This document shows positions 26,341-55,947 of a stretch of DNA of 64,000 nucleotides, piece after piece; position 1 is the first letter of the stretch, and each line of letters starts with the position of its first letter. Origin of the DNA: an uncultured Candidatus Rokubacteria bacterium (GTDB lineage Bacteria > Methylomirabilota > Methylomirabilia > Rokubacteriales > CSP1-6); assembly GCA_963789955.1 (NCBI GenBank), contig CAWBMV010000034.1, positions 960,001 through 1,024,000 on the forward strand, written 5' to 3'. The notes beneath the pieces are model-generated. The model did no database searches. It saw nothing but the letters and a program-made list of their open reading frames with translations, and had not been told where the DNA came from. A program made the translations under genes and the position numbers.

Positions 26341-26377
26341 TTGACGCGCCGGGGCCGCGGTGGTACGTGTCTAGACA
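26341..26377 (+). promoter_or_regulatory. Promoter with HutC/GntR-type palindromic operator
   Basis: TTGACG, 17 bp, TACGTG; overlapped by the perfect palindrome TGTCTAGACA (26368-26377), matching HutC-subfamily GT-N-TA-N-AC. Confidence 0.7.
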
Positions 26378-26402
26378 TCCTGACAACAGGAGGACCGCTC
26401 CT

Positions 26403-27128
26403 TTGAATTACCGCCCCGGTATTCCCCGCTATCTGCAGATCGCCGACTCCATCCGCCACGAGCTCCGCGACGAAGGCGAGCGAATCGCCTCCGAGCACGC
26501 GCTCTGCGCACGCTTCAAGGTGAGCCGCCCGACCATCCGTCAGGCGCTCGACGTCCTGGTTCAGGAAGGACGACTCTACCGCCACGCCGGGCGCGGGACG
26601 TTCGCGACACCGGCCGCCGGCGGCGATCGAAAGCTCCGCGTGATCGGCTCGGTGGGCGACATGATGGCGCTGGGCGACGAAACCTGGTTCAAGTTCGTGT
26701 CGAAAGAGGTCGTGCTGCTGCCGGCGAACATCGCGCAGGCGCTACGACTGCCGCCTCGCTCGTCGGCGTACTGCATCGTCGGCGTGCGCCATGCCGAGTC
26801 CGGGCCGTTCCAGCACGTCACCGCCTACATGCCGCTGACGATCGGCACCGCGCTCTCCGACGAGGATCTCTCCAAGACCTCGCTGATCGGAGCCATCGAG
26901 CGGGTGCTCGGCGTGCCGATCAAGCTCATGGAGCAGGTGGTCGACGCCGCGCTCGCGCCGCGCCAGGTCGCCGAGCACCTCCAGATTCGCGCCCGATCAC
27001 CGCTGCTCTTCTTCGAGCGCACGTACTTCGCGCTCAGCGGCGAGCCCGTGGAGCACGCCATCAGCTGGCAGACCGGCCGACGCTACCCGTACCGGATCGT
27101 CCTCTCGCGCGCGGAGCGCCGGAACTGA
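26403..27128 (+). CDS. GntR (HutC/UTRA) transcriptional regulator
   Basis: YLQIADSI, SEHALCARFKVSRPTIRQAL, GRGTF and a UTRA domain; AGGAGG RBS before TTG. Confidence 0.9.
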   Translation: MNYRPGIPRYLQIADSIRHELRDEGERIASEHALCARFKVSRPTIRQALDVLVQEGRLYRHAGRGTFATPAAGGDRKLRVIGSVGDMMALGDETWFKFVSKEVVLLPANIAQALRLPPRSSAYCIVGVRHAESGPFQHVTAYMPLTIGTALSDEDLSKTSLIGAIERVLGVPIKLMEQVVDAALAPRQVAEHLQIRARSPLLFFERTYFALSGEPVEHAISWQTGRRYPYRIVLSRAERRN

Positions 27129-53575: not shown

Positions 53576-54528
53576 GGTGGGCGCTCGCCGGAGCCCTCGT
53601 GGCGCTGGTGGCGCTCCCGGCGGTGCTGAGCTCGTACGCGCTCACCCTGTTCATCCTGATCTTCTTCTACGGCTTTCTCGGCCAGGCCTGGAACATCGTC
53701 GGCGGCTACGCCGGCCAGCTCTCGGCCGGCCACGCCGCGTTCGTCGGGGTCGGCGGCTACACCGCGGCGATGCTGTCGATCGAGCTCGGGCTGACGCCGT
53801 GGGTCGGCATGCTCGCGGGCGGCGCGCTCGCGGCGCTGCTCGGCGCGATCATCGGCTATCTCGGCTTTCGCTTCGGGCTGCGCGGCTTCTACTTCGTGCT
53901 CCTCACCGTCGCGTTCGCCGAGATCTGCCGCATCGCCGTCTCGAACATCGACGCGCTCGGCGGCCCGCTCGGTCTCTACATCACGTTCACCGGCAACCCG
54001 CGGCAGTTCCAGTTCCAGGACGGGCGCGTGTACTACTACATCGCGCTGGCGCTCATGCTGGTGGCGACCTTGACCGCGTGGGCCATCGAGCGGCGCCGCT
54101 TCGGCGTCTATCTGGCGGCGATCCGCGAGGACGAGGCGGCCGCCGAGGCGCTCGGCGTGAACGCGTTCAAGTACAAGATGCTGGCGATGGTCGTGTCGTC
54201 GTTTCTCACCGGGCTCGGCGGCACGTTCTACGCGTTCTATCTCTTCTCGCTGCAACCGAACACGCTCTTCGGCATCCCGTTGTCGGTCGAGATCATCATC
54301 CGGCCGATCGTCGGCGGCGCCGGCACGCTCCTGGGGCCGATCGTCGGCTCCTTCATCCTCACGCCCCTGGCCGAGATCTCCCGGCTCTATCTCGGGCAGG
54401 GGGGACTGCACGGCGCGCACCTCATCGCGTACGGCCTGCTCCTGATCGGCGTGGTCCTGTTCCTGCCCGAGGGGGCTTACCCGCGTCTTCGGCGCGCGCT
54501 GGCGCGACGCGCGGGCGGCGCGCGATGA
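53572..54528 (+). CDS. livM: Branched-chain amino acid ABC permease
   Basis: WNIVGGYAGQLSAGHAAF, IREDEAAAEALG. Confidence 0.9.
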   Translation: MRWALAGALVALVALPAVLSSYALTLFILIFFYGFLGQAWNIVGGYAGQLSAGHAAFVGVGGYTAAMLSIELGLTPWVGMLAGGALAALLGAIIGYLGFRFGLRGFYFVLLTVAFAEICRIAVSNIDALGGPLGLYITFTGNPRQFQFQDGRVYYYIALALMLVATLTAWAIERRRFGVYLAAIREDEAAAEALGVNAFKYKMLAMVVSSFLTGLGGTFYAFYLFSLQPNTLFGIPLSVEIIIRPIVGGAGTLLGPIVGSFILTPLAEISRLYLGQGGLHGAHLIAYGLLLIGVVLFLPEGAYPRLRRALARRAGGAR

Positions 54529-55259
54529 GTCTGCTGGCGGCGCGCGGTCTCTCCAAGCGCTTCGGCGGGCTCCAGGCCGTCACCGGGCTCGACCTGACCG
54601 TGGCGCGGGGGGAGATGCTCGGTCTCATCGGCCCCAACGGCGCCGGCAAGACCACGGTCTTCAATCTCCTCTCGGGCTTTCTCGCCCCGGACGGCGGCGA
54701 GATCGTCCTCGACGGCCGCTCGATCGTCGGGCTGCCGCCGCACGCCATCTGTCGGCTCGGCCTGGCGCGAACGTTTCAGATCGTCCGGCCGTTCCCGCGC
54801 ATGACCGTCCTCGAGAACGTCCGGGTCGGCGCGCTCGCCCGCTACCCGCGGGCGCCCGAGGCGCTCGCCCGCGCGCGCGAGGTCGTGGCGCGTGTCGGGC
54901 TCGGCACGCGCGAGCGCCTGCCGGCCGGCGCGCTGACCCTGGCCGATCGCAAGCGTCTCGAGCTGGCGCGCGCGCTCGCGACCGGCCCGGCGCTGCTCCT
55001 GCTCGACGAGGTGATGGCCGGGCTGAACCCGACCGAGATCGAAGCGATCATCGAGCTGATCCGCGGGATCCACGAGTCCGGCGTGTCGATCCTGTTGATC
55101 GAGCACAACATGCGGGCGGTGATGGCGCTCTCGCAGCGGATCATCGTGCTGAGCTTCGGCGAGCGGATCGCCGAGGGAGCGCCGGCCGACATCGCGAATC
55201 ATCCGAAGGTCGTCGAAGCGTACCTGGGCGAAGAGTATGTCCGCGCTGCTCCGGCTTGA
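54525..55259 (+). CDS. livG: ABC ATPase
   Basis: GPNGAGKT, ARTFQ, LDEVMAG. Confidence 0.9.
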   Translation: MSLLAARGLSKRFGGLQAVTGLDLTVARGEMLGLIGPNGAGKTTVFNLLSGFLAPDGGEIVLDGRSIVGLPPHAICRLGLARTFQIVRPFPRMTVLENVRVGALARYPRAPEALARAREVVARVGLGTRERLPAGALTLADRKRLELARALATGPALLLLDEVMAGLNPTEIEAIIELIRGIHESGVSILLIEHNMRAVMALSQRIIVLSFGERIAEGAPADIANHPKVVEAYLGEEYVRAAPA

Positions 55260-55947
55260 CGGAGTCGAGGCCGGCTACGCCGACCTGACCGCGATCTCGG
55301 GAGTCTCGCTCGAGGTGCGAGACGGCGAGGCCGTCGCATTGATCGGCTCGAACGGCGCCGGCAAGACGACGACCCTGAGAGCGATCAGCGGGCTCCTGCC
55401 GCTGCGCGCCGGACGCATCGAGTTCGAGGGCGCGCGGCTCGACGGGCTGCGCTCGGCCGAGATCGTCGCGCGCGGTATCGCCCACGTGCCGGAGGGCCGC
55501 CAGCTCTTTCCCTCGTTGACCGTGCGCGACAATCTCGAGCTCGGCGCGCGCGCGTCGGACCGCGCGCGACGCGGCGACACGCTCGAGCGCGTCTTCACGC
55601 TGTTCCCGCGGCTGCGGGAGCGCGAGCGCCAGCTGGCCGGGACCTTGTCGGGCGGCGAGCAGCAGATGTGCGCGATCGGCCGCGGGCTCATGGCGCGGCC
55701 GCGGCTCCTGCTGCTCGACGAGCCGAGCCTCGGGCTCGCGCCCGTGATGGTGAAGCTCATCTTCGAGACGCTCCAGCACGTCAACGACACCGGCACCACG
55801 ATCATGCTCGTCGAGCAGAACGTCCCGCGGGCGCTCCAGCTCTCGCATCGAGGCTACGTGCTCGAGAACGGCCGCCTGGCGCTCGAGGGCACGCGCGCGA
55901 GCCTGCTCGCGAGCCCCCACGTGAAGCGCGCCTACCTCGGTCTCTGA
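55237..55947 (+). CDS. livF: ABC ATPase
   Basis: GSNGAGKT, LSGGEQQM, DEPSLGLAP. Confidence 0.9.
   Translation: MSALLRLDGVEAGYADLTAISGVSLEVRDGEAVALIGSNGAGKTTTLRAISGLLPLRAGRIEFEGARLDGLRSAEIVARGIAHVPEGRQLFPSLTVRDNLELGARASDRARRGDTLERVFTLFPRLRERERQLAGTLSGGEQQMCAIGRGLMARPRLLLLDEPSLGLAPVMVKLIFETLQHVNDTGTTIMLVEQNVPRALQLSHRGYVLENGRLALEGTRASLLASPHVKRAYLGL

Follow-up and report, generated by a model that had tools for sequence, protein, structure and literature searches.

A gene cluster of a Candidatus Rokubacteria bacterium that resembles a variant form of the anaerobic indoleacetate pathway

The window analysed here, a stretch of 64,000 nucleotides (contig CAWBMV010000034.1, positions 960,001 to 1,024,000), stems from a Candidatus (Ca.) Rokubacteria bacterium and contains a cluster of 28 genes which, on balance, probably degrades indole-3-acetate (IAA) or 2-oxindole-3-acetate to 2-aminobenzoyl-CoA without O2. 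For the lower part of this route, in which a substituted succinyl compound is converted via a malonyl to an enoyl compound, our confidence is high. The cluster works like the anaerobic indoleacetate (iaa) pathway, which is known from a few denitrifiers, phototrophs and strict anaerobes. However, it counts as a variant form rather than a member in the strict sense, since this genome fails to show IaaC/E and IaaI/J as that pathway has them and its core enzymes branch outside the canonical clades. An earlier note, made from the sequence alone, had proposed an iaa-type logic; this is supported, in part, by four proteins that are the genome-best matches of IaaK, IaaH, IaaF and IaaL, carry signature residues and branch beside the Iaa clades. 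Its suggestion of an undescribed variant also holds, and a search of titles and abstract beginnings in an open-access library yielded no description of the Rokubacteria cluster.

The 28 co-oriented genes occupy positions 26403-55947 of the + strand, from gntR to the second livF. Six-frame reading and Pfam agreed with the orientation, gene families and stop/start overlaps noticed earlier; family calls were made by Pfam, and LivM2 was identified from the six-frame reading. With some starts assumed, 25 of the 27 gene junctions measure at most 48 bp, the majority overlapping, and the remaining two measure 103 and 238 bp, the latter preceding livH2. The G+C content of the cluster (~0.70) equals that of the remainder of the window. 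The features are as follows, where ODH stands for opine-dehydrogenase-like protein, HADH for 3-hydroxyacyl-CoA dehydrogenase, ACAD for acyl-CoA dehydrogenase, SDR for short-chain dehydrogenase/reductase and XDH for xanthine dehydrogenase.

26339..26377, +, predicted promoter (TTGAC...-10) and palindromic operator, from conservation ahead of gntR orthologues
26403..27128, +, GntR/UTRA regulator of the HutC type (Pfam, comparison with iaa loci)
27125..29197, +, hydantoinase/oxoprolinase A (HyuA), putative ATP-dependent lactamase; start codon uncertain; 36% to IaaC
29194..30945, +, hydantoinase/oxoprolinase B (HyuB); 30% to IaaE
31049..32209, +, IaaF-like, putatively decarboxylating ACAD in which GGG replaces YEG (similarity, motif, trees)
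32236..32688, +, MaoC-type hydratase, variable among relatives (Pfam, gene order comparison)
32685..33428, +, FabG-like SDR (Pfam)
33438..34607, +, SCP2-type thiolase (PRK06064 above cut-off)
34604..35557, +, HADH-like dehydrogenase of the PRK08269 type, elsewhere the partner of ODH
35554..35982, +, DUF35/ChsH2 thiolase partner (Pfam)
35979..36362, +, B12-binding mutase subunit, IaaG-like (49%), DxHxxG present
36411..38006, +, mutase large subunit, IaaH-like (53%), Tyr57/Arg175, glycine-rich and putatively widened pocket
38009..40294, +, XDH-family Mo subunit, IaaK-like (47%), no FAD/FeS partners in the cluster
40303..41496, +, family III CoA-transferase 1, not IaaL-like
41493..42602, +, ODH (Pfam, structure-database match, tree)
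42599..43067, +, V4R protein, frameshifted at 42715 by an assembly error
43064..47562, +, Liv ABC transporter 1 (H, M, K, G, F); an assembly error at 44938 frameshifts LivK
47576..48868, +, PaaK-like aryl-acetate CoA ligase, unrelated to IaaB
48865..50040, +, family III CoA-transferase 2, IaaL-like (42%; tree)
50055..51202, +, YEG-type ACAD with two assembly frameshifts
51199..55947, +, Liv ABC transporter 2 (K, H, M, G, F) (Pfam, six-frame reading, relatives)
24594..26275, +, YEG-type ACAD and DinB gene, co-conserved and lying ahead of the gntR promoter

To compare the core enzymes, three iaa loci (from Aromatoleum buckelii U120, from A. anaerobium LuFRes1 and from a metagenome-assembled genome of the Rhodocyclales) were retrieved via a primer end from PMC8360864, and their gene names were assigned from family and order. 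The best match in the host genome falls in the cluster for IaaF (49%, 342 bits vs 239 for the next paralogue), IaaH (53%, 577 vs 440), IaaK (47%, 625 vs 305) and IaaL, which is matched by CoA-transferase 2 (42%, 276 vs 163). The B12-binding subunit is 49% identical to IaaG, yet one paralogue scores alike. In the trees, the mutase joins IaaH against seven outgroup mutases (support 100/100) and the Mo subunit joins IaaK against 11 host-genome paralogues (SH-aLRT 100), each as a sister and not nested. CoA-transferase 2 joins IaaL (SH-aLRT 100) and, in a smaller tree, the GGG dehydrogenase joins IaaF (support 100), these two trees being made with quick and FastTree methods and limited outgroups. 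CoA-transferase 1 does not group as IaaL-like and is conserved across the order. Among 80 metagenome loci, those in canonical iaa order had IaaF 60-86% and IaaH mostly 67-89% identical to Aromatoleum. The relationship of the core enzymes to the Iaa proteins thus appears deep and real without being strict orthology.

The dehydrogenase carries the motif FLLPGGGTSE. Most ACADs have YEG at this place. The GGG signature occurs in every member that the IaaF subclass has and has been linked to 2-carboxyacyl-CoA decarboxylation, as reported in PMC8360864; it is not exclusive to IaaF in the wider tree described below. The Mo subunit retains the glutamate of GAKGxxE. Residues of the mutase pocket have known roles, and the mutase of the cluster retains the Tyr, Arg and His that align with methylmalonyl-CoA mutase, while the loop RSLIGGGG replaces RAHCQTSG (RMIAAGGG in IaaH). 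It differs from methylmalonyl-CoA mutase and 2-hydroxyisobutyryl-CoA mutase in that the conserved H-x-Q-T pocket loop is gone and Tyr is kept rather than the Ile of the latter. The natural reading is that its substrate would be a dicarboxyl-CoA compound with a bulky substituent. An AlphaFold model of the mutase from a 6-row alignment had a pLDDT below 50 at the pocket loop and was not used.

A TTGAC promoter carrying the palindrome TGTCTAGACA (26368-26377) sits ahead of gntR. Of 20 gntR orthologues, 17 have the core GTCTAGAC in their upstream region, where it follows a conserved TTGAC, and the operator 10-mer occurs once in the host genome. We take TGTCTAGACA to match the operators of the HutC family. 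Since sigma-70 and terminator scans of the locus stayed at chance level, the promoter prediction was taken from the comparison of relatives. From this arrangement we infer that the whole run may form one long GntR-controlled unit. The regulator is of the HutC-type GntR/UTRA family, unlike the FadR-type regulator of iaa, to which it is unrelated.

Close homologues of the cluster proteins are labelled Ca. Rokubacteria or Methylomirabilota, and mutase matches of 73-96% were found in most of 40 relatives. Gene order is retained over the whole or nearly the whole run in five genomes of the host family, and in a sixth over the half that was read. Across the order, 83 of 121 genomes carry the GGG dehydrogenase (69/104 in the host family, 13/15 in a second family, 0/1 in a third) and 62 of 121 carry ODH, with 0/15 in the second family. 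Because kin are not independent, this distribution shows vertical inheritance and not repeated origin. Similarity searches, phylogeny and synteny, which were among the checks proposed in the earlier note, placed four enzymes beside the Iaa clades and showed the cluster to be co-conserved. The MaoC/SDR pair had been regarded as a clue to the substrate, but the SDR is missing in all six mapped clusters of the host family and MaoC is variable, so that both are dispensable and say little about the substrate. Several genomes of the family hold an amidohydrolase (deaminase-like) gene between HADH and DUF35 (e.g. locus L032, 12649-14013). The cluster stretch itself occurs in soil, rhizosphere and sediment sequencing runs.

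HyuAB were rejected as IaaC/E orthologues, since HyuA (36%) is only the third-best IaaC match in the host genome, HyuB is 30% identical to IaaE and likewise not the genome-best match, and the pair forms a separate clade; HyuB groups with Natrinema, Caballeronia and Palleronia proteins. A HyuB search of 401 Pseudomonadota returned one match (48%). Closer IaaE relatives (56-61%) are present in nine of the 104 genomes of the host family, the tenth match dropping to 37%, and form the sister of IaaE with support 100. In all nine genomes, this gene adjoins the Liv and PaaK genes of the cluster and is accompanied by an IaaC match of 48-51% (in one on a separate contig end), usually together with a VOC-family gene between V4R and livH (Pfam on three genomes). 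In the window, V4R overlaps livH and a contig bridges the junction; therefore, the trio of VOC, IaaC and IaaE is truly absent here.

Genes for the FAD and FeS subunits IaaI/J are also absent from the host cluster and the clusters of the same family that were read. The host and five relatives each hold six to nine other FAD subunits, and the Mo subunit is still highly conserved; it is possible that the Mo enzyme shares FAD/FeS subunits with paralogues. The second family has IaaI/J-like genes ahead of the Mo gene, and its HyuAB orthologues (65-70%) lie 40-50 kb away in four of five genomes and on another contig in the fifth. There, HyuAB adjoins a gene of the benzoate-CoA-ligase family, joined in both genomes whose reading extended far enough by PRK08258 and PRK08255 genes; we take these to be a gene set for 2-aminobenzoyl-CoA. 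Pooled over its genomes, the order holds proteins related to IaaC, E, F, G, H, I, J, K and L, and the window is a reduced form that would rely on a second lactamase.

The ODH and HADH-like genes lie 6 kb apart here and are adjacent elsewhere, namely in 11 of 11 matches among 401 Pseudomonadota and in seven of the eight plasmid-collection loci examined (of 14 matches). Three of the 11 have iad-like genes within 10 kb, with IOR genes confirmed in two, the stretch of the third showing no more than iadC and a binding protein, and two have iac-like genes within 10 kb (one only a reductase and MFS gene). In the other six, which come from closely related genomes, the pair immediately follows a ligase with 47-49% identity to IaaB and lies close to PRK08255-linked genes. 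Among the eight plasmid-collection loci, that of Paracoccus saliphilus follows the order iadC-J, its Rieske subunit scoring 576 bits to IadD (PDB 9O71). Those of Acinetobacter and Burkholderia arboris carry iac-like operons, recognised by comparing their composition and size with Table 3 of PMC11676955. Rokubacteria ODH is the sister of the proteobacterial group with support 98. Full-length alignment with Arthrobacter N-(1-D-carboxyethyl)-L-norvaline dehydrogenase (PDB 1BG6) gave 140 bits, and His, Arg and RYxxED, which have catalytic roles, are aligned.

Expression data from Bradyrhizobium bear on this pair. According to the induction values in Donati 2013 (PMC3788728), IAA raised blr6085 (ligase) 5.2-fold, blr6086 4.1-fold and blr6087, annotated there as 'putative 3-hydroxybutyryl-CoA dehydrogenase', 3.9-fold, as well as bll6081 (9.8-fold) and bll6082 (7.2-fold). 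The order, strand and annotation of blr6085-blr6087 match the six proteobacterial loci, and on these grounds blr6086/blr6087 are probable counterparts of the ODH/HADH-like pair. The induction could also act through anthranilate. The earlier note had regarded ODH as a sign of a different substrate, but the neighbouring genes and the IAA induction point towards indole/anthranilate catabolism instead. Our guess is that the pair oxidises a tryptophan-derived indole acid or N-substituted tryptophan that feeds the pathway. Agrobacterium-type opine-lactam catabolism was rejected as the main role of the cluster, finding no support beyond the gene arrangement in Natrinema described below. A search of titles and abstract beginnings in an open-access library yielded no report of an ODH pair beside IAA operons.

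The O2-independent route envisaged earlier stands for the upper and middle pathway, but not for ring cleavage. By analogy, the upper steps would need no O2. Ring cleavage in the host probably does, because boxB (above the cut-off) and a PRK08255-type gene (salicylyl-CoA-hydroxylase-type, 76%) are present and no benzoyl-CoA reductase was detected: a search for its B subunit gave no match in the host genome (87% complete), while being positive in A. buckelii and, below the cut-off, in one of four relatives. The boxB gene (two split matches), a benzoate-CoA-ligase-like gene and another PaaK-like gene are located at contig 892029-896500, ~95 kb upstream. The match of one Rokubacteria genome (G511, C1:703409-704590) to benzoyl-CoA reductase B scores 317 bits, under the cut-off, and on this ground some Rokubacteria may reduce the ring anaerobically. 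A search of the host genome for IOR-alpha returned one partial match below the cut-off.

Gene content, relationships, motifs and co-conservation were observed directly, and every reaction and substrate of the following route is deduced from them. The substrate would be taken up by the Liv transporters and attached to CoA by the PaaK-like ligase. The Mo enzyme would then hydroxylate C2 with FAD/FeS subunits borrowed, in the host family, from paralogues, and HyuAB would open the lactam with ATP in place of the IaaC/E sister lost by the genus. The two CoA-transferases may place CoA on (2-aminophenyl)succinate, which the B12 mutase would rearrange to (2-aminobenzyl)malonyl-CoA. Oxidative decarboxylation would yield 2-aminocinnamoyl-CoA, from which acetyl-CoA would be set free through MaoC, the SDR or HADH and then thiolase/DUF35. 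Cleavage of the aromatic product would fall to O2-dependent genes located elsewhere, and the ODH/HADH-like pair may feed in a further tryptophan-derived indole compound.

Several observations weigh against this route. The four core enzymes (IaaF, IaaH, IaaK and IaaL counterparts) share 45-55, 51-59, 44-54 and 37-45% identity with the canonical clades, within which identities are 64-97, 65-100, 54-85 and 59-97%, and 22-44 fixed differences per enzyme separate Rokubacteria from the canonical proteins, some near the Mo site or mutase pocket. In a wider ACAD tree, to which 59 of the top 60 representatives from a 1.84-billion-protein search were added, the GGG dehydrogenases fall into several unresolved lineages and the sister link with IaaF is not exclusive. 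The HyuAB clade differs from IaaC/E and has no assigned substrate, and in the IaaE search the IaaC/E sister was absent from the host and all 13 genomes of its genus. No cognate FAD subunit was found in the host genome or five relatives (best 41-45%). Orthologues of IaaA, B, M or P are missing from the cluster: the thiolase gave no match to IaaA and the ligase none to IaaB, a protein that itself varies between 29 and 68% among canonical iaa loci. In the second family, neither the IaaL-like transferase nor ODH was found in the five genomes searched, and four of the eight plasmid-collection ODH loci lack an IAA operon nearby (that of Cytobacillus also lacks HADH).

Fixed active-site differences leave room for a shifted substrate, and the same chemistry might thus act on another N-heteroaromatic acid or lactam that yields a substituted succinate, which we rate as the second most likely reading, less probable than IAA or 2-oxindole-3-acetate. 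Candidates are a ring-substituted indoleacetate or the six-ring lactam 2-oxo-tetrahydroquinoline-4-carboxylate, a metabolite of quinoline-4-carboxylate; IAA would then serve only the few relatives keeping the IaaC/E sister. The lactamase retained in both families is indeed HyuAB and not that sister, and the binding proteins are just 26% like IaaM. Furthermore, the Rokubacteria dehydrogenases join Ca. Dormibacterota proteins in the wider tree, and that of the host lies outside the canonical IaaF clade as sampled, without the archaeal and sulfate-reducer orthologues named in PMC8360864. However, IaaC/E sisters, an IaaL sister and the IAA-linked ODH/HADH pair share one cluster, and no quinolinone reductase gene was identified.

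That the locus is a composite is rather improbable. In this reading, HyuAB, ODH and the HADH-like protein would form a lactam/opine module which, like an arylmalonyl module and the two transporters, has a substrate of its own while sharing one regulator, and the IAA entry would be decaying in the genus after loss of the IaaC/E and FAD/FeS genes. Such modules do occur apart. In Natrinema gelatinilyticum (NZ_CP100757.1, 12798-19836), homologues of HyuA, HyuB, ODH and HADH (34-47%) cluster with CoA ligases and a CoA-transferase, with no mutase within 15 kb or in the 31 kb read. The distance of 40-50 kb between HyuAB and mutase in the second family, together with the missing ODH there, and one genome of the host family with the Mo gene and ODH by gntR but neither mutase nor lactamase within the 40 kb that were read, point the same way. 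This contrasts with a Mo subunit that is 66-95% conserved across the order, with the gene order retained in most family genomes read, and with the single conserved operator heading the run. That the Mo enzyme is instead a dehydroxylase of the 4-hydroxybenzoyl-CoA reductase (4-HBCR) type, the remainder being ordinary short-chain acyl-CoA metabolism, is hardly credible. Although the 4-HBCR alpha subunit is its top NCBIfam and PDB match, the TIGR03194 score is 625 against a cut-off of 995 bits and IaaK gives the same top match. In addition, the FAD subunits of relatives hold one or two cysteines, indicating no 4Fe-4S insert, and the mutase pocket and GGG motif are unlike those of housekeeping enzymes.

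Compared with the iaa system of Aromatoleum aromaticum EbN1, the Mo large subunit, split B12 mutase, GGG dehydrogenase and IaaL-type transferase are related and co-clustered, and a hydantoinase pair, CoA ligase, thiolase, binding protein and GntR occupy the same slots. In contrast, the lactamase, ligase, thiolase, hydratase, binding proteins and regulator are non-orthologous here, the FAD/FeS genes are missing from the cluster, and the core enzymes stand outside the Iaa clades. A CoA-transferase, ODH, the PRK08269 HADH, V4R, two YEG dehydrogenases and complete Liv transporters are extra. The iad (Variovorax) and iac (Pseudomonas/Paraburkholderia) systems resemble the cluster in that the ODH/HADH-like pair adjoins both kinds in other bacteria, and iad also ends in anthranilate, according to bioRxiv 10.1101/2025.10.25.684584. 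However, those aerobic operons begin with oxygenases, and their iac and iad genes have no close homologue in the host genome (28-35% for the Rieske subunits). Caprolactamase CapAB and N-methylhydantoinase are the best described relatives of HyuAB, whose scores of 540 and 299 fall well short of the CapA/CapB cut-offs (1000). The Arthrobacter enzyme 1BG6 is a distant relative of ODH, whose subfamily here is tied to a PRK08269 partner and amino-aromatic catabolic clusters.

A related cluster, judged by the GGG marker, is found in about two thirds of the sampled Rokubacteriales genomes and is seen in soil and rhizosphere metagenomes. It would give the uncultured Rokubacteria a defined enrichment substrate and make them a candidate player in soil auxin turnover. 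As a tentative extension, the Rokubacteria, which are widespread in soil, may consume auxin and the products of its oxidation by plants on a large scale that has so far gone unrecognised. They would do so by a deep-branching iaa pathway that includes a new lactamase and a subunit-sharing Mo enzyme, and the ODH/PRK08269 pair would be a new module, common to all three known IAA systems, that channels a tryptophan-derived metabolite into them. Enzymes open to testing are the new lactamase and a second family of B12 mutases for bulky substrates and of decarboxylating dehydrogenases, and the dehydrogenase pair is open to genetics in cultured Bradyrhizobium, Paracoccus or Acinetobacter.

Single-base insertions affect V4R (42715), LivK1 (44938) and the second ACAD (50148 and 50722). 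In the order of their positions, they are missing from near-identical strain contigs in 3, 4, 3 and 3 of four runs, and related genomes lack them too. Therefore, the four frameshifts are assembly errors, and pseudogene decay was rejected. Contigs from RNA libraries cover all bins evenly, as DNA would, and with this flat coverage may be DNA.

A third ACAD, co-conserved with the cluster, spans 24594-25748 just upstream; in relatives, the second ACAD (50055) is ~66% identical to this copy. Just past the window (contig 1025000-1034000) lies a conserved block with GntR, genes like etfB/etfA, two ACADs and a second B12 mutase of the split kind; this electron-transfer flavoprotein could serve the cluster dehydrogenases. 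The second mutase was rejected as an IaaH orthologue, as it has an ordinary RTHTQT loop and falls in the outgroup; it has Phe at the Tyr site and is presumably isobutyryl-CoA-mutase-like. A plasmid search with the GGG dehydrogenase gave generic matches only, below 45%. Further lineages of this dehydrogenase occur in Ca. Dormibacterota, Anaerolineae and others (P0129, P0133, P0136, P0140); one GGG locus (L055) adjoins an IaaA-like thiolase (47%) and another (L057) an orthologue of CoA-transferase 1 (68%).

Elsewhere in the window, the cluster is followed at 56016-63146 by an iron-uptake block with hemP, exbB/exbD-like and tonB-like genes, a frameshifted region that resembles a TonB-dependent receptor, and a PKHD-type Fe(II) hydroxylase. 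The part ahead of the cluster holds a TcuA tricarballylate dehydrogenase over the cut-off (3216-4703), a CoxL-like Mo subunit (9858-12242) and a phosphonate HD-domain oxygenase-like gene (13161-13727).

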